From a virus (lineage: Duplodnaviria > Caudoviricetes), in the IMG/VR virus record IMGVR_UViG_3300033475_000115, positions 1-30,525 of that record: a stretch of 30,525 nt of DNA; one strand, given 5' to 3'. The position numbers and the translations under genes were made by a program. Shown here one piece after another: positions 4,853-30,525 of this stretch (its first letter is position 1; each line of letters starts with the position of its first letter). The notes below the pieces were generated by a model that searched no databases, was not told the origin of the DNA, and was given only the letters and a program-made list of their open reading frames with translations.

Positions 4853-5566
4853 TCAGGTGATGGAGAGTTGGACTACGTCGCTGGGGAGCAGGCCGTCCTT
4901 CTGGGCGGCGGCGCGCACGGTGGCGGCGGCTTCGAGGGTGACGGCACCGGTGTAGAGCGTGGCGGTGGTGTTGCCGGAGCCGGGATAGGTGCCGTCGGTC
5001 GTGTAATAGATCGCGGCGCCGGCCGTGGCGCAGGAGAGCGTGAAGGCGAGCGAGCCGCCGGCAGTGATGGCCGGGCGGGCGACTTTGGGGACGGGTTGCA
5101 GGCCGCTCTTGACCGAGAAACTCACATCCACCGTCACACGTGGATCGAACGCATCGGTGGGCACCATCGAAGAAAAGAGCAGGATGTTTCCCCCGAAGGG
5201 CGTGAACTGGTGGCCGAGCTGGATACAGTGCTCGGCGATCTCCTCGGCGGTCTTGCCAGTGCCGACCGGCCCGAGATTGATCGGCACGATCTCCTGGATG
5301 CGCACGGTGAGCAGGACATCCAGCCTCGGGCCGGGCACGTTGGGATCGAGCTGGTCGCTGGCGGGCATGAGCACCTGCACCGAAGCGCCGGCCTTCCCTG
5401 CCTTCTTCTTGATGCCGCCCAGCACCTGCTCGATCTGCTCGTAGATCTGCGCGAAGCCGGCCTTGGCGCGCGGGCGGATGAGCGATACCTCGATATCCGC
5501 GAAGAACGAGTCGCTCAAATAGCGGGTGTAAAGATCGAGCTGTAGGCGTTCGTGCAGGCTGCTCAT
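4853..5566 (-). CDS. Putative tail terminator/neck protein with C-terminal chitobiase/Fn3-associated (CHB_HEX_C-like) domain
   Basis: Synteny. C-terminal LSCATAGAAIYYTTDGTYP...YTGAVTL...TVRAAA...SDV is the typical Fn3-associated motif. Confidence 0.65.
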   Translation of the reverse strand: MSSLHERLQLDLYTRYLSDSFFADIEVSLIRPRAKAGFAQIYEQIEQVLGGIKKKAGKAGASVQVLMPASDQLDPNVPGPRLDVLLTVRIQEIVPINLGPVGTGKTAEEIAEHCIQLGHQFTPFGGNILLFSSMVPTDAFDPRVTVDVSFSVKSGLQPVPKVARPAITAGGSLAFTLSCATAGAAIYYTTDGTYPGSGNTTATLYTGAVTLEAAATVRAAAQKDGLLPSDVVQLSIT

Positions 5567-17429: not shown

Positions 17430-17657
17430 GTGTCTGTCTTTCACGTCGTGGCTAAACCTCCAGCCAGCAAACGGAAAAGACAGGATGCCGAGGGGCAATT
17501 TGTCTTCTGCTTCGCGGCCGATCTGCTCGCGGAAAATGCGGCGCTGCGGGCGGAGAATGCCATTTTGCGGGAGAAGCTCATAAAAAAAGGCGAGATGCTT
17601 ATGATGCTTGGGCAGCGGCTGCGCCACCTTGGGACTGCGGATTTTTTAGCGCCTTGA
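17430..17657 (+). CDS. Possible small coiled-coil protein convergent with the repressor gene
   Basis: LLAENAALRAENAILREKL heptads; fills an otherwise empty gap; overlaps the repressor 3' end. Confidence 0.35.
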   Translation: MSVFHVVAKPPASKRKRQDAEGQFVFCFAADLLAENAALRAENAILREKLIKKGEMLMMLGQRLRHLGTADFLAP

Positions 17658-18108
17658 TGTTGACCTCGGCCTGGCGACCCAGCTCATCGAGATCGGCCTC
17701 GATCTCGGTCATGTTCACATGCCAGCGAGCAGGCACGGAGACATGATTACGCAGCTGCTCCAGCACCCACGCTTGGCGGACAATATTAGAACCAGCAGCA
17801 ATCAAGAGAAGCCGCATGTGCTCATCGATATCACGCTTGATGTTTTTACCAAGTAAACCAGCGGGTTTAGGTGAACTTCCGTAAGGCGCCGAATCTTCGG
17901 CAACGAGGGGTATCCCTTTGAGTGACGTTTCTTTTGTGCGCTCGATCTCAATGAGACGTGCGTCTATTTCATCGGAAATCGGGTAGTGGCCATTCTCTAC
18001 GCGATTCACGTAAGGACGTGCATAGCCTAATAGTTTGGCAAATTCAGATTGATCGAGGCCGAGTCTGCGCCTGAGCAGCATCATGGATTCTGCGGTGTGC
18101 TTAGGCAT
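17599..18108 (-). CDS. XRE-family HTH prophage repressor
   Basis: LRRRLGLDQSEFAKLLGYARPYVNRVENG; VAED..PY linker; divergent from the early operon; no S24 peptidase domain visible. Confidence 0.85.
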   Translation of the reverse strand: MPKHTAESMMLLRRRLGLDQSEFAKLLGYARPYVNRVENGHYPISDEIDARLIEIERTKETSLKGIPLVAEDSAPYGSSPKPAGLLGKNIKRDIDEHMRLLLIAAGSNIVRQAWVLEQLRNHVSVPARWHVNMTEIEADLDELGRQAEVNIKALKNPQSQGGAAAAQAS

Positions 18109-18187
18109 ATAACTTTTTTTCTAAAAACATAACATTTGTGCTTGAACAAGTGTGACGTAACACATGTGATGCCGTCACAAAGCCACC
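18109..18187. promoter_or_regulatory. Divergent lysis/lysogeny control region with candidate early promoter and operators
   Basis: AT-rich. TTGAAC(18142)-17 bp-TGTGAT(18165). Palindromes TGTG-N6-CACA (18151-18164) and TGTGA-N5-TCACA (18165-18179). Confidence 0.65.
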
Positions 18188-18364
18188 ATGACCCCTCGAA
18201 AGCAAGCCCCGATTACCCTCAAGAAGAGGATGCTCGATAAAAAAGTAAACGTAACGGATCTAGCCCGCCGTGTAGGCCATGCGCGCACCACCGTCAGCCG
18301 AGCAATCAATCACGGCGCCAATGCCGGTGTCCTTAAAAAAGTGAAGGAGGTTCTCGATGTCTGA
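18188..18364 (+). CDS. Ner/Cro-like HTH protein (58 aa, absent from ORF track)
   Basis: MTPRKQAPITLKKRMLDKKVNVTDLARRVGHARTTVSRAINHG...; first gene of the early operon. Confidence 0.8.
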   Translation: MTPRKQAPITLKKRMLDKKVNVTDLARRVGHARTTVSRAINHGANAGVLKKVKEVLDV

Positions 18365-19680: not shown

Positions 19681-20436
19681 ATGCCTAAAGCCTCTCTCCA
19701 AGTCATGCCCTCCAGCCCTTTTGCGGGGCTTCAAATCTCGGCCACCCCCTTCGGCGTGGGGGATAAAAAGGTGGGCGAAAAACTCACCGCGCTCTACCGC
19801 GATGCGCAGGACGCCGAGCTGGCGATCCTCCGCTTTGGCGCGGCCTTCTGGGCGGTCGAGCAGGTAGTTCTGGCCACATGTGGCCAGAACTCCGGTCCCG
19901 GTGCCTACGGCTTCGCTACATGGCTTGCCGACCACGCGCCCGAGATCAGCCGCACCACTGCCCGCCGCTACCGCGACATCGCGGAGGCGACGGCGGAGCG
20001 GTTCAAGATCGCCGACCCGGTGCGGGTGTTTTCCCTGCCGGTGGACCAGCTCGACAAGCAGGACCAGGCGAAGCGGGCCAAGGTGTGCGAGTTCATGGCC
20101 GAAAAATCCATGCGCGGCATCCAGCTGGAGCTGGGCCTCGTCTCCCGCATGGGTGCCGCCGCCAAGGGGGGCGACCTGGGCGGGCGCCGCAAGGCCGCCG
20201 CCGACATGAGCCCCGCCGAGATCGCCCAGGCGCAGGAGGCCACGCGCGCGGCCAACGAGAAGGAGTGGACCGGCTGGCTCGACATGCTCGAAGCCACCGG
20301 TCTGCGGATGCCGCAGTGGAGCTGCCTGCCGCTGCACAAGCTGGAGCGCATGTCGTCGCTCCTGCTCGACGTGCGCCGGCTCGTTGACCAGGCGGTCGCC
20401 ACGGAGCGCCGCGCAGTGAAGGGAGGCCGCGCATGA
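19681..20436 (+). CDS. DUF3102-like protein upstream of the transposase
   Basis: FATWLADHAPEISRTTARRY motif; ATGA overlap with the transposase. Confidence 0.55.
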   Translation: MPKASLQVMPSSPFAGLQISATPFGVGDKKVGEKLTALYRDAQDAELAILRFGAAFWAVEQVVLATCGQNSGPGAYGFATWLADHAPEISRTTARRYRDIAEATAERFKIADPVRVFSLPVDQLDKQDQAKRAKVCEFMAEKSMRGIQLELGLVSRMGAAAKGGDLGGRRKAAADMSPAEIAQAQEATRAANEKEWTGWLDMLEATGLRMPQWSCLPLHKLERMSSLLLDVRRLVDQAVATERRAVKGGRA

Positions 20437-22490
20437 GCCTGCTTCTCGAAAACAACCGCCGCCTGTTCTTCGTGCCCGCCGCCGATCGCGAGCTCTTCGA
20501 CACGCAGATCCCGAAGGCCGCCCGCGCCCGTTGCGAGCTGCTGCTGTGTTGCATGGAGCGCATCCATCTCGCCCGCAACCGCAAGGCCGAGTGCTCCGAA
20601 ATTGCGCGCCGTCTCACCCACCTGCGCGGCTGCTCGGCCCCGCACCTGAAACGGTTTTACCTGGCGTTCCGCGCCTCGGGCAACGACTGGCGCAAGCTCG
20701 TCGCCGCCTACCACCTGCCCGCCGAGGAGCACCAGCGCGGGAATCTCTCGCCGGAGTTCGTGCGCTACTGGCAGGCGCTCGCCGAGGAAAACCAGCGCGC
20801 GGCGCGGCCCGCGTATCGCGAGCTGCTGCGCCGCTGGCGCCGGGGCGACGAGATCGCCGGCGTGGGCACGTGGCAGCGGTGGTGGCAGGCCAAGTTCAAG
20901 GGCCGCCCGCTGCCCGCCGAGTGCCCCGAGGACCTGCCCACCGGGTGGTCGTATGAAAACCTGCTGGCCAACATGCCCGCGAAGGTGGAGACGACCATCG
21001 TGCGCGACGGCCTGTTTGCCGCGCATGCCGGGCTCTCGCAGATCCTGCGCGACCGCAACCAACTGCGCCCGCACGAGCTGCTCACGTTTGACGACGCGCA
21101 GCTCGACTTCCGCGTGATGGCCGATGGCGGGGTGCGCAAGCTGCGCGGCGTGTTCTGCCTCGACGTGGGCGACGCCTATCTGCTGAGCCACTACACCAAG
21201 CCCGCCCTGGCCAAGGAGGATGGCGGCGAGGAGGGCCTCATGCGCGCCGAGGTGCGGCAGATGCTTTTCTACATCCTGCGCGACTACGGCATCCCGCGCG
21301 ACTACCCGCTCAATCTCCTGGTCGAGAGCGGCGCGGCCTCCATTTCCAAGGAGGACGCCGCCTGGCTGCACGCGATGAGCGGCGGCCGGATCATCGTGCA
21401 CCGCACGAGCGTGACGGAGCGCACGGCGTTCCTCGGCGCGTATACCGAGCGTTACGGCCAGCCCTGGCACAAGGGCTGGATCGAGGCGTTCTTCAACCTG
21501 CTGCACAACGAGTGCGCGGGGATCGCAGGCCAGTTCGGCCGCAACCAGCTCGAAGGGAAGACGGGCGACTTCGAGAAGCGCAAGGAGGCCGCGCTCGCCC
21601 TCTACAAGGCCGCCGAGTGCCTGCCCGCCTTCTACCGCGACCAGCTCGCCACGCCGTTCCCCTCGCTGGGGCGGGCCAACGATTTTCTCATCGATGTGAT
21701 CAACCGCATCAACCATCGGCAGGACCACCGCCTGCAGGGCTTTGAGCGCGTGTCGCAGTGGCGGCTCACCGATGGCGACCGATGGCGCGACTGGGCCGAG
21801 CTGCGCGAACTGCCCGCCGCGGCGCATGACGCGGTGCAGACCCGCGAGGTAATGGAGTCGCCCGCTGCGCGTCACGCCCGCCGCTGGGCCGAGCTGGTGC
21901 GCGACCCGCTCTCCGAGCTGTCGCTCATCCCGCTGCTCAACGCCAAGCGCACCGTCACCCTGGCCAAGCCTTTCGAGGTGAAGCTCCAGATCGACGGCAA
22001 GGGCCACGTATTCAGAAAAATCGACAAGGCGCTGGCCAAGGAAGGGCTCACGTTCACCGCGCACTTCGACGAGGACCGCGCGGACTGCATCCATCTCTTC
22101 GACGAGGCGGGCCGCCATGTGGCGACGCTGCCCCGTGTGGACGGCTTCAATCCGCTCGACCGCGACGCCTACAAGACCGCGATCAAGGCCACCGCCGCCG
22201 GCAACCGCGTGCTGCTGGACAACATCCAGCAACGCACCGCCGGGCGCGCCGGCGAGCGCCTCGTCGCCGAGGAGCGCAACCGCGAGGTGCTGGAGACGGC
22301 CGCCGCCGACATCGAGGCGGGCCGGATGCAGCTCAACGCCGCCGAACGCGCCTCGCTCTCCATGCAGGCCGGCGCGGCCGAGGTGCGCACCACCCGCGCC
22401 GCGTCCAAGACCCGCTCCTCCAAGAAGCAGGCGGCGATGACCAGCAAGTTGGCCGCCCTCGCCCAAAGCGCCCGCGACAACGGCGCTTAA
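20433..22490 (+). CDS. Mu A-like DDE transposase
   Basis: 685 aa; LLTFDD (first acidic residue), LLVESG (second), KGWIEAFFN (third); followed by an ATPase gene. Confidence 0.82.
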   Translation: MSLLLENNRRLFFVPAADRELFDTQIPKAARARCELLLCCMERIHLARNRKAECSEIARRLTHLRGCSAPHLKRFYLAFRASGNDWRKLVAAYHLPAEEHQRGNLSPEFVRYWQALAEENQRAARPAYRELLRRWRRGDEIAGVGTWQRWWQAKFKGRPLPAECPEDLPTGWSYENLLANMPAKVETTIVRDGLFAAHAGLSQILRDRNQLRPHELLTFDDAQLDFRVMADGGVRKLRGVFCLDVGDAYLLSHYTKPALAKEDGGEEGLMRAEVRQMLFYILRDYGIPRDYPLNLLVESGAASISKEDAAWLHAMSGGRIIVHRTSVTERTAFLGAYTERYGQPWHKGWIEAFFNLLHNECAGIAGQFGRNQLEGKTGDFEKRKEAALALYKAAECLPAFYRDQLATPFPSLGRANDFLIDVINRINHRQDHRLQGFERVSQWRLTDGDRWRDWAELRELPAAAHDAVQTREVMESPAARHARRWAELVRDPLSELSLIPLLNAKRTVTLAKPFEVKLQIDGKGHVFRKIDKALAKEGLTFTAHFDEDRADCIHLFDEAGRHVATLPRVDGFNPLDRDAYKTAIKATAAGNRVLLDNIQQRTAGRAGERLVAEERNREVLETAAADIEAGRMQLNAAERASLSMQAGAAEVRTTRAASKTRSSKKQAAMTSKLAALAQSARDNGA

Positions 22491-22535: not shown

Positions 22536-23633
22536 ATGGCCACCATCATACCGACCGAATCCCAACTGCGCGACTGGATCACCAGCGGCTGCGAAAACCC
22601 GAAAAAGAACATCTACCCCATCGAGGCGATCGACGCCACGATGGCGATCCACAGCTATCTCTACCGCCGGTGCGAGGGAAACATCAACGTGCTCGTCGAG
22701 CACGCCCGCCTGAAGGGCTTCAACTACGACTACGGCTTTTTCTACCAGCTGCTCACGGCGCGGTATTTCCGGCCCGACTCGAAGACGGGCAAGCCGCAGG
22801 GCTCGTGGAAGAATGTGGTCGAGCTGTGGAAGCAGCTCCAGATCTTCGATATTTTCGCCAAGGCGCTCTCCAAAATCCGCTTCGTCGATACGAGCGTCTA
22901 CGAGCGCATAAACGACTATGTGCAGTTGAAAAGCACGCCGTTCAACGCCTGCCGCTTCGGCGCGGTCGTGGGCCACACCGGCATGATGAAGACGGAGAGT
23001 TTTCTTGAGATCGGCCGGCGCGGAAAGGCGGGGGCGATCTTCCGCATCGAGTCGCCCGCCCAGCCGAAGCTGAACCAGTTTATCCACAAGCTGGCCCACG
23101 CCCTCGGCGCGCAGAAGACGTGGACGATCGCGCGCAAGATGGCGCACATCGTGGAGAACGTCGCCGACCGCGTGCTCATCATCGATAACGTGCAGCGGTG
23201 TTTTAATCTCCGCAGCGGCTCCAACCAGCCGATCTTCGACTATCTCCAGGAGTTGCAGGAAGACACCGGCTGCACGATCATCATCTGCTGGACGCCGGTG
23301 GACAAGGAGTTCGAGGGAGAGTTTACCGGCGGCGCCTACTTTGAACAGTTCGTGGGCCGCATCGGCGGCGAACGTGAAATCCTCCGCCTCGAAGACTACC
23401 CTCTGGAGGAGGACATCGAGAAGATCGCCCTGAGCTTCCACCTGCCTGAGGGCGACGTGGAAAAACTCATGCCGCGCCTGCGCCTGCTCGTGCGGGAGAA
23501 GGGCCGCATACGCGCGCTCTTCAACGCGCTCCAGCAGGGCGCCCGCCTCGCCACGGCCGACGAGAAGCCCTTCCGCGCCCACCACGTCCTGAGCTACCTC
23601 GCGAGCTACGATGAAATGAAAGCCGCCATCTAA
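22536..23633 (+). CDS. Mu B-like AAA+ transposition ATPase
   Basis: Walker A-like GHTGMMKT, Walker B-like VLIIDN, EQFVGRIG, GRIRAL. Confidence 0.82.
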   Translation: MATIIPTESQLRDWITSGCENPKKNIYPIEAIDATMAIHSYLYRRCEGNINVLVEHARLKGFNYDYGFFYQLLTARYFRPDSKTGKPQGSWKNVVELWKQLQIFDIFAKALSKIRFVDTSVYERINDYVQLKSTPFNACRFGAVVGHTGMMKTESFLEIGRRGKAGAIFRIESPAQPKLNQFIHKLAHALGAQKTWTIARKMAHIVENVADRVLIIDNVQRCFNLRSGSNQPIFDYLQELQEDTGCTIIICWTPVDKEFEGEFTGGAYFEQFVGRIGGEREILRLEDYPLEEDIEKIALSFHLPEGDVEKLMPRLRLLVREKGRIRALFNALQQGARLATADEKPFRAHHVLSYLASYDEMKAAI

Positions 23634-25362: not shown

Positions 25363-25653
25363 ATGAGCGCCGCCCGCCAAAAACACCTCGGCCCGCTGGA
25401 TTTCAGCGGAGGCCCCAACGCCCCGAAGCCCGGCTCCGGCATGAAGGCGCTGGAGGCGGCGGCGATCTCCAAGCCGGCCGGATCGTTTTACTATCCGCTG
25501 TTTGAACACATGAGCCGTGAACATGGCCTGATTTTAACCGACTCCGAACTCGCCGAAATCGTGCGCGTGTCGGAAGCGTTAAGCCGGAACGACGCAGGTG
25601 GGCCATGCGGCCCGCAGGCCGCGCCCGTTGGCACCCCTCGCGAACACCCCTGA
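25363..25653 (+). CDS. Hypothetical protein whose 3' end runs into the distal attC
   Basis: In-frame AAC at 25588; stop lies inside the attC loop. Confidence 0.6.
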   Translation: MSAARQKHLGPLDFSGGPNAPKPGSGMKALEAAAISKPAGSFYYPLFEHMSREHGLILTDSELAEIVRVSEALSRNDAGGPCGPQAAPVGTPREHP

Positions 25654-25688
25654 GCAGCATACGCATTGGCACTAGCGCATGGTTCTCC
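25584..25688 (-). repeat. attC site of cassette 5 (distal), 105 bp
   Basis: Minus strand: ggagAAC-catgc-gct(a)gtgc-ca(a)tgcg ... cgcatg-gcccacc-tgcgtc-GTTccgg. Confidence 0.7.
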
Positions 25689-25699
25689 TCCGTAAATTT

Positions 25700-25894
25700 A
25701 TGTCCTCGAAAACTATCAAACTCACCGAAGTCCGAAGAGAGAAAATCGACTTCCGCAAGATCGCCGAAGAATCCGGCGCACGTCTCGGGAACCTGTGCCA
25801 CTCGCCCGCTTTCGGCTGGGGCGTCCGCACGCAGGACGGATACCCGGCTGACTTCTGCTCGATCACGCCTCCGCCGTTCCAACAAATAAGATGA
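25700..25894 (+). CDS. Cassette 5 ORF, hypothetical (alternative start 25679)
   Basis: MSSKTIKLTEVRREKIDF...; stop overlaps the methylase ATG. Confidence 0.55.
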   Translation: MSSKTIKLTEVRREKIDFRKIAEESGARLGNLCHSPAFGWGVRTQDGYPADFCSITPPPFQQIR

Positions 25895-26000
25895 CCAACG
25901 ACCCTGAGATGACGGCCACGTCGGAGCCCGTCGCGCTCGAATGCCCTGCACCGATCGCGGCAGGACAGACAGGGTCGTTGGGTCTGGCGCCTGGTTCAGC
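25877..26000 (-). repeat. attC site of cassette 4, 124 bp
   Basis: Minus strand: gctgAAC-caggc-gcc(a)gacc-(c)aacgaccctg ... cagggtcgtt-ggtcatc-ttattt-GTTggaa; 10-bp perfect inner stem. Confidence 0.85.
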
Positions 26001-26469
26001 GTCCGTTCACTTTTCGAGCGCCTCTGACGACTGGCCAACCCCTCAAGACTTCTTCGACAAGTGCAATGCGGAGTTCGGGCCGTTCGACCTCGACGTGGCC
26101 GCCGCGCCGGACAACGCCAAGTGCGCGAAATACTTCACGTCGTGGGATGACGGCCTCGCCCGTGAATGGTGCGGGCGCGTGTGGATGAACCCGCCGTATG
26201 GTCGCACAATCGGCGACTGGATGCGGAAAGCCTACGAATCCGCGCAAGCCGGCGCGCTCGTGGTGTGCCTCGTGCCAGCGCGGACAGACACGGCGTGGTG
26301 GCACGACTACGCGATCAAAGGACATATCCGATTCATTCGCGGGCGGCTAAAATTTGGGGGGCACGAAAACTCAGCGCCGTTCCCCTCGGCCCTCGTGGTC
26401 TTCTCTCCGCTGAACGCGGAGATCAGACACGCGAACCCGAATACCAATTCCGCCCCGAGCGGACAATGA
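25891..26469 (+). CDS. Cassette 4 ORF: phage DNA N6-adenine methyltransferase (phage Dam-like family)
   Basis: DDWPTPQDFF, FDLDVAA, DGLAREW, VWMNPPYG, LVPARTDTAWW, IRGRLKF, SAPFPS. Confidence 0.92.
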   Translation: MTNDPEMTATSEPVALECPAPIAAGQTGSLGLAPGSASVHFSSASDDWPTPQDFFDKCNAEFGPFDLDVAAAPDNAKCAKYFTSWDDGLAREWCGRVWMNPPYGRTIGDWMRKAYESAQAGALVVCLVPARTDTAWWHDYAIKGHIRFIRGRLKFGGHENSAPFPSALVVFSPLNAEIRHANPNTNSAPSGQ

Positions 26470-26521
26470 CCATGAAAAAACCTGAACCTGTGAGCGTTGT
26501 TTCTGTGGCGACTGGTTCTCT
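26409..26521 (-). repeat. attC site of cassette 3, 113 bp (weaker inner stem)
   Basis: Minus strand: agagAAC-cagtc-gcc(a)caga-aacaacgc ... gcgtg-tctgatc-tccgc-GTTcagc. Confidence 0.75.
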
Positions 26522-26753
26522 GGCTCGTGAGCCGCTGACCGAAAAACAAGCCGACAACCTGCTGGCTCTGCTCGGAAACGCCAAGAGGCTGGAAAAGCTC
26601 AGCGCGGCGGAACTCGTGAGCGAATGTCTCGAGACTCCCGCCGCTGACTACCAAGTCGTGACAGAGCTCATGAACCGCGTCCTGCCGGGGTGGGCTGACA
26701 TACTCGGGGATGACGAGCCAGAGAACGCTTCGGATCAGAGACCCCGCCCATGA
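26466..26753 (+). CDS. Cassette 3 ORF, hypothetical (95 aa)
   Basis: ATGA overlaps at both ends; start lies in its own attC loop. Confidence 0.7.
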   Translation: MTMKKPEPVSVVSVATGSLAREPLTEKQADNLLALLGNAKRLEKLSAAELVSECLETPAADYQVVTELMNRVLPGWADILGDDEPENASDQRPRP

Positions 26754-26811
26754 AGACTCTCAATTGTAAGCAAGACGCGAAGGCGGGGTTCTCTGCATCC
26801 GATTGTTCGCC
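26720..26811 (-). repeat. attC site of cassette 2, 92 bp (clearest example)
   Basis: Minus strand: ggcgAAC-aatcg-gat(g)caga-ga(a)ccccgcc ... ggcggggtc-tctgatc-cgaagc-GTTctct; perfect stem apart from two unpaired bases. Confidence 0.92.
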
Positions 26812-27097
26812 CACGTTCGTCTGGACGCTCATCGCTGGCTACGAGCCGATGGAGGAATGCCATACCGATGGCGGCATGAAAGTCGGCTGGGTCAACCCGG
26901 ATGCGCTCACCAAGATGACGCCTCGGAACAAATGGGGAACGCGCGCGGACTGGCCCGGCGAGTGGGAGGGCGTGCCGCATGTCAACGACGCAGAAGGCCA
27001 GCCGCTCGATTGGGAATTGTCGCGCGTCTGTGAAAGCTACGAAGCCGCGAAGTCGCACGTTCAGCGCAGTTGGGCGAACAACTCGGGTCAGAAATGA
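26750..27097 (+). CDS. Cassette 2 ORF, hypothetical (115 aa, Trp-rich)
   Basis: Start in its own attC loop; stop in the next attC. Confidence 0.7.
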   Translation: MKTLNCKQDAKAGFSASDCSPTFVWTLIAGYEPMEECHTDGGMKVGWVNPDALTKMTPRNKWGTRADWPGEWEGVPHVNDAEGQPLDWELSRVCESYEAAKSHVQRSWANNSGQK

Positions 27098-27164
27098 CCC
27101 TCTACTAATCAACCGAATCACCAGCGGGCACAGCAGGGTCATTTTCTGTAGTCGCTGGTTAGCC
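27073..27164 (-). repeat. attC site of cassette 1, 92 bp
   Basis: Minus strand: ggctAAC-cagcg-act(a)caga-a(a)atgaccct ... agggtcatt-tctgacc-cgagtt-GTTcgcc. Confidence 0.9.
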
Positions 27165-27181
27165 TCCGTAAAACGAATACT

Positions 27182-27493
27182 ATGGACCTAGAAACACGAT
27201 ACATCGTAGTGAAAATCAAGGACGCGAACCGCTTCCTTTCGACTGCCGAGCGAGACATGCTAGAGCGGCTCCATGCCAAGGCCGCTCTGGGTAGAATAGA
27301 CGCAGGCCAAAAGATGCTAGACTGCATCGTGGTAGAGAAAGACTGGCCGGAATACGCGCCGACACTCGCCGCTATCTCAGCCCGCGTGGACGCCCTCGGG
27401 AATAAGCCACACCATGCATGTGACGAATCGTGCATCTATCACTGCACGGAAGCCGGACAGCATCCGCCTGATTGTTTGGCTAACAAGCAGTAG
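27182..27493 (+). CDS. Cassette 1 ORF, phage-type hypothetical (103 aa)
   Basis: RYIVVKIKD...CIVVEKDWPEY pattern; ends ANKQ* across the attI crossover. Confidence 0.75.
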   Translation: MDLETRYIVVKIKDANRFLSTAERDMLERLHAKAALGRIDAGQKMLDCIVVEKDWPEYAPTLAAISARVDALGNKPHHACDESCIYHCTEAGQHPPDCLANKQ

Positions 27494-27517
27494 GCCCACG
27501 GAGGTTCTCTATCACTT
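27478..27517 (-). other. Putative attI site
   Basis: Minus-strand GTTagcc core (27484-27478) with a 6-bp spacer and L-like box, no attC hairpin; 33 bp upstream of the intI ATG. Confidence 0.7.
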
Positions 27518-28456
27518 ATGCCCTGGCTCGCTGACAAAATCTCGGATGCTTGTGCGGTGAAGAACTTTTCACCGCGCACGGTGGAATGCTACACGTCGTG
27601 GGCTCGGGTATTTTTTCGGTTCTGCAAGCAGCGTGACCCCCGCTCCTGGACGGCTGATGACGTTAAGGGATTCCTCACTTGGATGGCTACGACGAGTCCT
27701 TCCTATTCGGCCAAATCCCAAAAGCAGGCTAAGAACGCCATCGTCTTCGTCACCCGTCACGCGCTGGGAGTGGACATTGGCGATTTCTCTTCGTTCCAGC
27801 GGGCGCCGGAGTTCCGCCGACCTCCCACGGTGTTATCTCGCACTGAGGTGCTCGCACTCCTCGAAAAAATCCCTAACAAATGGCGGCTTCCGATTGAGCT
27901 GCTTTATCGGTGCGGCCTTCGGCTGAATGAAATGTGCCGGCTGCGGGTGCAGGACTTGGATATCTCTTGCAGGCGGGTGATCGTCATTGATGGAAAGGGC
28001 AAAAAACACCGTGAGGTGCCGTTGCCAGAATGCCTGGTCGAAATGGCTGAGCGCCGTATCCGTTGGCGCAAGGGCCTGCACGAGGCCGATCTTGCCCAGG
28101 ACGCGGGGATCGCTCCGATGCCTGATCGCCTCGGGGTCAAGCTGCCCAGCGCCTGTCGTGAGATCGGCTGGCAGTTCGTTTTCCCCTCCACCTGCATCCG
28201 TGATGGGGCGCGGTGGTGGACGAGCGATACCCAGATTCAGGAGATGGTGAAGAAAGCAGCCAAGGAGGCCGGCATCCTCAAGCGCGTCACGCCCCACACT
28301 CTGCGCCACTGCTACGCCACCCACCTGCTGGAGGCTGGCGCCAATATCCGCGACGTCCAGGAGCTGCTCGGTCACGCCGACGTCTCGACGACGATGATCT
28401 ATACCCATGTGCGCGCCCAATCGACGCGGGGATTTGTTAATTTACTGGCCTCATGA
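27518..28456 (+). CDS. intI: Integron integrase (tyrosine recombinase)
   Basis: SPRTVECY..W N-terminal domain, PTVLSRTEV, GLRLNE, DGKGKK, IntI-specific insert LHEADL..DAG...MPDRLGVKLPSACREIGWQFVFPS, HTLRHCYATHLLE, LLGH, TTMIYTHV. Confidence 0.92.
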   Translation: MPWLADKISDACAVKNFSPRTVECYTSWARVFFRFCKQRDPRSWTADDVKGFLTWMATTSPSYSAKSQKQAKNAIVFVTRHALGVDIGDFSSFQRAPEFRRPPTVLSRTEVLALLEKIPNKWRLPIELLYRCGLRLNEMCRLRVQDLDISCRRVIVIDGKGKKHREVPLPECLVEMAERRIRWRKGLHEADLAQDAGIAPMPDRLGVKLPSACREIGWQFVFPSTCIRDGARWWTSDTQIQEMVKKAAKEAGILKRVTPHTLRHCYATHLLEAGANIRDVQELLGHADVSTTMIYTHVRAQSTRGFVNLLAS

Positions 28457-29046
28457 CGCCCGCCGCCCGCAGTCACTATTTCATCGAGCTCTGGCCAGCC
28501 GCCGCGCTCGCCAACGAGTGGAACGTCAAGGACGACGCCCGGCGGCGCGCCGTCACCCTCGCTTGCATGGCGGCCATCAAGGGCCCCGAGACCGATTCCG
28601 TCTCCAAGATGGGTGAGGACGAGATCACGGCGCTGTTTACCTACCTCCGCCACCTCGCAGATCCCGCGAGCCTGGACAAATCCGCCCGCTGGGTGAGCTG
28701 CCAAGAGGACTACAAGACCTTCGCGCGCGCGAAGCAGGCCGATTTCCACGAGCGCAGCCTCTACGGGAAGGGCAAAAACAAGCTCGATAAGAACCGTTTC
28801 AAGGGCGAGACGAGCGCCGCCGGCGGCCCGCTCGACACCCTCGACGCCGAGGAGGTGCGCAAACGCCACCTCACGATGGCCAGCCGCAACCAGGCGCGCC
28901 TGCGGAAAGAGAAAAAAGACCGGCGTGCGGCTACCAAGGAGCCGGCGATCGACTTCGACGCCGCGCCGGCCGGCACCGCGATGCCTGCACCGGCTGCTCC
29001 CATGCCCGCGCACCGCAAAACCGCCGATATCGAGGTGCCGTTCTGA
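28453..29046 (+). CDS. Hypothetical protein (possibly Mu gp16/GemA-like)
   Basis: ATGA overlap with intI; backbone-like codon usage; position late in the early operon. Family call is weak. Confidence 0.55.
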   Translation: MTPAARSHYFIELWPAAALANEWNVKDDARRRAVTLACMAAIKGPETDSVSKMGEDEITALFTYLRHLADPASLDKSARWVSCQEDYKTFARAKQADFHERSLYGKGKNKLDKNRFKGETSAAGGPLDTLDAEEVRKRHLTMASRNQARLRKEKKDRRAATKEPAIDFDAAPAGTAMPAPAAPMPAHRKTADIEVPF

Positions 29047-30229: not shown

Positions 30230-30396
30230 GCGAGGCTTAATCCTCCGCCAATCTGCCGGCTTTTTCCGGCTTTCTTGTCCGAGGAGGAGCAAACCGAAAT
30301 CCAAGCCGTCCCGGCACCCGCGCGGCGGCTTTTCTCCTCTGTAGTTCAGGGTTTCTCAGGGTAGATAAGGCTTTTTCAGGCGAGGCTTAATCCTCC
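30230..30396 (+). repeat. 17-bp direct repeat pair, candidate transposase-binding sites
   Basis: gcgaggcttaatcctcc at 30230-30246 and 30380-30396; internal GAGG-N6-CCTC dyad. Confidence 0.75.
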
Positions 30397-30525
30397 CTCC
30401 CTCTCTCAATGAACGGATCGGTTTGGCATCAGCCAAATGTGAATAAGTTTTTGGCTGAAATCTGTTATTTGAGACGGAGTTGTCTTGACTGAAGTGGGTT
30501 AAAATGGGTTGAAATGGGGCGTTCT

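Follow-up and report, generated by a model that had tools for sequence, protein, structure and literature searches.

Classical integrons, namely class 1 and the chromosomal integron of Vibrio cholerae (structure 2A3V), share with the locus described here an integrase with the IntI-specific insertion, an attI site beside intI, attC sites with R and L boxes and extrahelical bases in the usual polarity, and cassettes that are cut, on the bottom strand, at AA|C. The locus lies at 25584-28456 of IMG/VR virus record IMGVR_UViG_3300033475_000115 (Duplodnaviria; Caudoviricetes), of which a stretch of 30,525 nucleotides, here called the window, was analysed. It differs from the classical systems in that its cargo genes stand on the attC sites' bottom strand and point toward intI, so that a Pc-type promoter at intI could not read the cassettes. 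Its genes also overlap attC at both ends, its intI has no room for a promoter of its own, the extrahelical base of its L'' boxes is T or C and not G, and it is seated in the early operon of a transposable phage. Judged from the sequence, this is a complete integron within the early gene cluster of a Mu-like prophage, with its genes on the bottom strand, and we consider it likely that the phage uses it as a device of its own to gain, lose and reorder accessory early genes. An earlier note on this DNA had proposed a phage-owned system for capturing and shuffling accessory early genes, and the proposal was supported: the integrase is of the IntI and not the Xer type, it is not that of the host, and related phages differ at AAC.

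Integrons in phage DNA were surveyed by Qi et al. 2023 (PMC9892861), who counted, over 10,705 phage genomes, three complete integrons, each of host type, and 17 clusters lacking an integrase. Of the complete ones, one was a subset of a Vibrio chromosomal array, one consisted of class 1 fragments in P1, and one, in a cryptic prophage, had a 95% Shewanella-like IntI. The surveyed cases resemble the window in having complete integrons or attC arrays in phage DNA and methyltransferase cargo, and phage attC sites from that survey were shown to recombine with IntI1, but orientation there is typical or mixed, and the main text, to which our comparison applies (gene orientations may be given in the supplement), describes no uniform reversal, no phage-specific IntI lineages and no Mu-like phage. 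Relative to that main text, a probably phage-owned, reversed-cassette integron in a Mu-like phage is new. In the text available for PMC13492144 and PMC13366799, the survey is only cited, and a literature search covering mostly abstracts and few subscription papers returned neither an account of the reversed layout nor one of an integron carried by a transposable phage. An integrase search of the INPHARED phage set returned the Qi 2023 records and two others, all less than 40% identical. A 41-kb virus record (KX853513.1:4680-5588) holds a 36% identical IntI-like gene annotated xerD and is possibly another phage integron.

The integrase gene (intI, 27518-28456, + strand) is intact and encodes 312 aa. 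The IntI-specific insertion and intact catalytic motifs that had been attributed to it were borne out, as the protein scored 295 bits against the integron-integrase model TIGR02249 (cut-off 265), aligned over its whole length with 2A3V, an IntI of solved structure (E 6e-56), insertion included, and has all six catalytic residues (R135, K160, H260, R263, H286 and Y295). In the predicted structure (pLDDT 91), the insertion stretch forms short helices and a hairpin; the structural assignment is based on the alignment to 2A3V and on this model. A XerC/XerD or phage lysogeny integrase was considered and rejected, because the XerC and XerD models scored 148 and 144, far under cut-offs of about 330, and the IntI insertion is present; a XerA-type match was interrupted between residues 183 and 239. 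The clustering with XerC/D that the earlier note had named as a ground for dropping its reading was thus absent. Among the best 120 of 1142 protein matches, 67 proteins were 52-100% identical, mostly of 310-312 aa, and after this lineage identity fell to 47% or less. Other integrases in 401 genomes of the host order were at most 47% identical and mostly 400-500 aa long, and the lineage alignment matched 2 of 400 other genomes of the host family. Scanning with this alignment and generic motifs, which for genomes extended over 3 of 64 parts, gave no lineage member besides L002 among viral contigs and none in metagenomes (2 of 64 parts). The host phylum is probably Verrucomicrobia, since the closest named integrase relative (L099, 73%) is recorded as coming from a Verrucomicrobia bacterium.

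The five attC sites claimed previously were all recovered by an independently built covariance model, site 5 imperfectly. The model was made from 32 sites of other loci with a hand-set structure, the window sites and their close homologues being excluded, and on the 30.5-kb window it gave five matches of 33-46 bits, at 25583, 25877, 26409, 26720 and 27073, with the sixth-best match at only 12 bits. Numbered from intI, and all lying on the - strand (bottom strand = +), they are attC 1 (27073-27164, 46 bits), attC 2 (26720-26811, 36 bits; DNA folding z -4.3), attC 3 (26409-26521, 33 bits), attC 4 (25877-26000, 44 bits) and the partly decayed attC 5 (25584-25688, 35 bits). A strict hand-made scan passed sites 1, 2 and 4 (3/5), with none found in 494 of 500 shuffled sequences and one in each of the remaining 6. 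An Rfam search of the sequence gave no match, and a repeat search gave no useful direct repeats. On the + strand all five sites have a 7-nt L' box after AAC and an 8-nt L'' box before GTT; this makes + the bottom strand, with the sites pointing away from intI, the same polarity as in any integron. The attI-like site (27477-27517, - strand) forms no hairpin, and its crossover lies at 27483/4. Its position 33 nt before the intI start agrees with the 33 bp given before, and its assignment is based on position, conserved core and cassette junction, integrase binding being putative. A nearly identical sequence follows the last crossover in L002/L199, and analogous short sites occur at 10 other phage loci. 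In a second integrase lineage, a 10-bp motif immediately ahead of intI is conserved among the attI sites (L351:18103-18136, L356, L357, L358, L359 and L360) and is present twice in L358 and L359.

The cassette lengths given in the earlier note (405, 353, 311, 532 and 293 bp) were confirmed, as were its six AA|C crossovers (27483/4, 27078/9, 26725/6, 26414/5, 25882/3 and 25589/90). R'' pairs with the end of its own cassette over 7, 9, 14 and 8 bp in cassettes 1-4 and with the neighbour's end over 3-4 bp, and it fits its own far end better than the neighbour's in 33 of 37 phage cassettes. In cassette 5, R'' pairs over only 3 bp with its own end and the L box of site 5 is mismatched; site 5 is nevertheless a real attC by sequence comparison, because a cleaner copy, 84% identical, occurs in the C5 phage and because the L386 sequence diverges just before the same crossover.

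All five cargo genes of the window (5/5) lie on the + strand, the bottom strand of their attC sites, in the same direction as intI and the phage early genes; this reversal, absent from the earlier note, extends its reading. The canonical arrangement, with top-strand genes and Pc on the intI side, was thus not found in the window. With the genes turned round in this way, every attC comes ahead of its gene. Across 12 phage loci, selected by integrase or phage-gene similarity and not by orientation, the better open reading frame (ORF) was on the bottom strand in 35 of 37 cassette rows, the other 2 being near-ties, and L386 contributes 3 of 3 further reversed cassettes. In host arrays (C17, C23, C25 and C27), by contrast, 20 of 21 valid rows had the conventional top-strand gene; one parsing artefact was dropped there, and one row probably merges two cassettes. 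Two gaps of more than 1600 bp were skipped in the count. A further 17 viral contigs with more distant integrases, whose arrays are putative phage modules, gave 31 bottom, 9 ties and 1 top (n = 41).

Most of the reversed genes begin or end within a hairpin. Of 35 genes, 18 start inside attC and 17 after R'', while at their other ends 22 cross the crossover with AAC in frame, 1 crosses it in another frame, 6 stop at the core TAA and 6 stop earlier. (The scripted count gave 23 in frame; the ORF it picked in cassette 5, 25605-25889, was judged not to be the gene.) Stop and start codons overlap as ATGA at 25891, 26466 and 26750, each within an attC, and again between intI and the next gene. Section 3.2 of PMC8876359 describes attC hairpins as translation barriers relieved by short ORFs through stop-restart coupling. 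The attI1/attC case set out there (ORF-11 and short ORFs) is alike in barrier and coupling; the window differs from it in that the cargo genes themselves start and stop in the bottom-strand hairpin, and do so regularly. The genes would be ordinary relative to the strand used if the phage enzyme recombined the other strand, and top-strand recombination is possible at low frequency (Nivina et al. 2016, PMC5027507, where strand choice and orientation in integron recombination are set out). The extrahelical L'' base is not G in 35 of 38 phage sites (T or C), and the base-binding loop of the enzyme is altered, both of which would fit such a switch. T, however, is also the base in 25 of 25 host sites, which are conventional; homology between phages breaks at the + strand AA|C, beside the 7-nt L' box; and R'' matches its own cassette end. 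We regard a change of strand as very improbable.

Cassette 1 (27079-27483, + strand, as are all five) carries gene 27182-27493, encoding a phage protein of unassigned function (PHROG7810, E 1.5e-15), whose stop codon lies within attI. Cassettes 2 (26726-27078) and 3 (26415-26725) carry genes 26750-27097 and 26466-26753, both of unassigned function and starting within attC 2 and attC 3, respectively. Cassette 4 (25883-26414) carries a phage N6-adenine methyltransferase (25891-26469; Pfam Dam E 1.6e-29, PHROG111) whose start codon is within attC 4. In cassette 5 (25590-25882) the likely gene is 25700-25894 (64 aa, function unassigned); its stop overlaps the Dam start, no family match was found for it, and 18 aa match the start of an ORF in L359. 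The description of the cargo as phage-type and not resistance genes held, since PHROG matches were found for 9 of 38 phage cassette proteins scanned against 1 of 20 host cassette proteins, and no resistance gene was seen among the cargo. The nine matches comprise two methyltransferases, one Lar-like and one repressor-like protein, and five of unassigned function. In L002 (7107-7990), an attI-proximal cassette has two genes, one with a helix-turn-helix (HTH), and a repeated promoter-like stretch.

These comparisons bear on the possibility that a prophage passively captured a piece of the host chromosomal integron, for which Qi 2023 (PMC9892861) offers a precedent in two Vibrio phages, according to its main text, and for which the large host integron with the same attC family provides a source. 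The phage and host sites do have common L boxes and the T bulge and form one attC family. The host's own integrase (L366), however, is only 43% identical to that of the window and falls in a different clade, the phage lineage being separated from it with a support of 0.996 in one tree and of 82, or 99.9 with P0070, in a second. Moreover, host cassettes are conventional whereas phage cassettes are reversed, no cargo protein is common to the 37 phage and 21 host cassettes, and the PHROG matches differ as given above. Capture from the host is thus largely refuted already, and we put its probability close to nil. The host chromosomal intI (L366:1950-3500, on C23 of the host genome assembly G000) is extended at length at its N terminus and looks broken, its open frame being 274 aa; either this is an assembly error, or the cell may have no intact integrases other than those of the phages.

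Exchange at the predicted boundaries was seen between phages. Cassette 3 also occurs in a non-Mu phage on C4 of G000 (L365), 311 bp long in both and 91% identical, with flanks of only 35% and 25% identity, and the homology ends at both crossovers, to the base. Contigs of a related population (run X1), which holds relatives of some cassettes only, match cassette 4 to 25881 and 26415 and continue into other DNA. Two joints in that run were considered as evidence of excision and rejected, since both fall within the methyltransferase gene and extend 29-30 letters to one side. Four of seven homologues of the cassette 2 protein retain Asn at the crossover position and then diverge (judged by eye). 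A non-Mu phage, L358, has a cassette with 65% identity to the first one of L386. The conserved phage early gene at 25363-25653 (+ strand), whose 3' end contains the far crossover of the array (25589/90), has 80% aa identity over 74 residues in L386; the DNA similarity fades a few bases before AAC, and a different attC follows. The earlier note had held that identical gene content among relatives, with no variation at the AAC boundaries, would count against it; the content differs exactly at AAC, and the cassettes, by this comparison of junctions, are units that move when cut at AA|C.

The comparison with related prophages that had been called for yielded six other Mu-like phages (with MuA or MuB) whose arrays hold other cargo, namely L002/L199, L351, L356, L357, L386 and L394. 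The transposase of L356 is 88% identical to that of the window but its integrase only 34%, and L351 and L386 have integrases of 34% and 32% identity directly before the same downstream gene. This gene (28453-29046, + strand, its start overlapping the intI stop) is a conserved phage gene; it follows intI immediately in L351 and L386 and one ORF later in L394, and in L391 and L392 it is present with no integron before it. Some of the six phages have integrases of only 27-35% identity. Because close relatives differ in this platform, the attI-intI unit has been exchanged or gained more than once. The same layout is found in the non-Mu phages C5 and L358-L360. In L364 (G000 C5) and L365 (G000 C4), two related non-Mu phages, reversed arrays sit among the replication genes; one of the two arrays has an intI of its own, and the other lacks it. 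In L099 (6200-8230), the array adjoins a reversed tail-like gene, which suggests that the middle of this prophage was deleted or misassembled.

Several of these attC sites are found with more than one gene. Site 5 is 84% identical to the attC of the C5 phage already mentioned, site 4 is 79% identical to a C5 attC carrying another gene, and an attC nearly the same as site 1 precedes another gene in L357; for these three, similarity ends within a few bases after R''. More generally, the same attC occurs with different genes, the same gene with different attC-encoded leaders, and similarity ends just after R'', which suggests that genes may be joined to attC at the R'' side too, i.e., in a cassette creation step. 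We offer, tentatively and at rather less than even chances, a wider reading in which phages of this bacterial group maintain a second integron economy beside that of the host: several phage-specific integrase lineages would be interchangeable at one slot and would share a reversed pool, with new cassettes arising from phage genes set in backward. Cassettes would be built between a host-family attC and its flanks, and the pool would span Mu-like and non-Mu phages. As to origin alone, the reversed cassettes could instead be host cassettes whose whole gene segment was flipped between complementary core sites. The ends of that segment are 7-bp inverted repeats, so that a flip preserves the structure, and the 17 of 35 genes that start after R'' and the 6 that stop at the crossover are as such a flip predicts. 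The flanks, however, are unflipped: TC follows R'' in 25 of 25 sites of the host and in 17 of 38 of the phages, whereas the reverse complement precedes none of 26 phage crossovers. In addition, 18 of 35 genes start inside attC, and the cargo is phage-type. Because the short flank after R'' retains host polarity, we hold a whole-segment flip to be quite improbable.

In the working that we propose for a phage-owned device, one early transcript would run from a promoter on the cro side through the array, across attI and into intI. A separate promoter has no space ahead of intI, so production of the integrase would come with prophage induction and replication, when single-stranded DNA would let the attC sites fold. 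The enzyme would at that stage cut cassettes out (attC x attC) and place them at attI through the known bottom-strand reaction. The stop and start codons supplied by the hairpins would couple translation across them in any cassette order, and the cassette pool would be common to unrelated phages of the same host group. The orphan adenine methyltransferase, the only cargo that can be named, would likely protect phage DNA from restriction.

A number of observations weigh against a working device of this kind. A consensus promoter scan gave no + strand promoter for the early operon or the array, the promoter and terminator scan being at chance level (2 vs 1.8 and 16 vs 12.8). Among 14 further Mu-like loci, attC and intI are present in only 2 (L386 and L394), some of the contigs ending early; intI is truncated in L002, where its first 199 codons are lost right after attI, and in L348, and is absent from the C4 array, so arrays persist without it. 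Cassette 5 is decayed in appearance. The phage enzyme has Arg-Trp-Trp and a shorter loop in place of the Arg-His-His of cellular IntIs. Genomic context was established for 4 members of the integrase lineage only, L099 was called Mu-like by eye and gave no tblastn match to window proteins, and the orientation counts come from related loci and overstate independence. As an observation on that motif, Trp at 233 occurs in 7 of 7 Verrucomicrobia-type phage integrases compared, from several lineages, and His in the host enzyme (window 28211-28219, residues 232-234).

The arrays with truncated or missing integrases (C4, L002 and L348) also favor the view that the phage integrase is a passenger or rarely active, and that cassettes are moved mainly in trans by the integrase of the host or of another phage. 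The phage attC sites do belong to the host attC family, G000 encodes two further integrases above the integron-integrase cut-off, and IntI1 recombined phage attC sites in the work described in the main text of Qi 2023 (PMC9892861). A passenger, however, is hard to reconcile with catalytic residues that are invariant in 60 aligned lineage members and with an intI fixed beside attI in at least three lineages, and the host intI that would act in trans looks broken in the assembly. We consider this explanation unlikely, yet the least so of the competing ones, and conclude that the integron of the window probably belongs to the phage and works.

The window covers most of a Mu-like prophage of 36.4 kb, with head and tail genes leftward. 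The Mu-like assignment is founded on a DDE transposase and MuB ATPase, TG...CA ends with repeated sites, and Mu-type head genes. A divergent pair made up of a repressor (17599-18108, - strand) and a cro-like gene (18188-18364, + strand), both with HTH matches, spans 17599-18364 and is the presumed origin of the rightward early operon. The window contains no match to a Verrucomicrobia LexA-box pattern. The Mu-type transposase (20433-22490, + strand) has a weak rve_3 match, and its assignment depends on a 29% identical homologue in L357 that matches the PHROG310 transposase; the MuB-type ATPase follows (22536-23633, + strand; PHROG296, E 5e-10), and after both comes a rightward run of small ORFs ending in CA at 30408. 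The right end of the element (30240-30408) has repeated 15-bp sites, and the left end is a TG at G000 C7:217590 with a similar repeated site. The right flank of the window (30409-30525) is composite, with 14 bases shared with the left-end flank and then C33 DNA, and G000 carries C7:14741 DNA past the right end; the two assemblies thus differ there, which is not proof of transposition. For the gene downstream of intI, viral relatives were sought and none was found. In the virion region, a protein encoded at 4853-5566 has a C-terminal chitobiase/Fn3-associated domain (Pfam E 4e-13). G000 also contains another Mu-like prophage (L367, C14:38000-57999), which has tail and early genes in common with the first, with no attC or intI within the stretch searched. 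Mu-type phages integrate by transposition, and a tyrosine recombinase is unnecessary for their lysogeny. In their accessory (semi-essential) early region, as in the window, the genes for the transposase and MuB are followed by a series of small genes that varies; the window differs in that its variable genes are bounded by recombination sites and accompanied by a dedicated recombinase.

Integrons have been treated as bacterial devices that phages carry by accident, and here a phage lineage appears to own one, apparently rebuilt so that the early transcript reads cassettes and integrase together. Such a system would provide a site-specific and testable route to phage gene mosaicism, anti-restriction cargo included. 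Because G000 holds a conventional host integron and three phage arrays of one attC family, it allows the cassettes of host and phage to be set against each other within one genome, which is relevant to the making of cassettes and to what determines the orientation of their genes. If true, the wider reading of a second economy would expose the cassette-making step, which would be testable in an inducible prophage.

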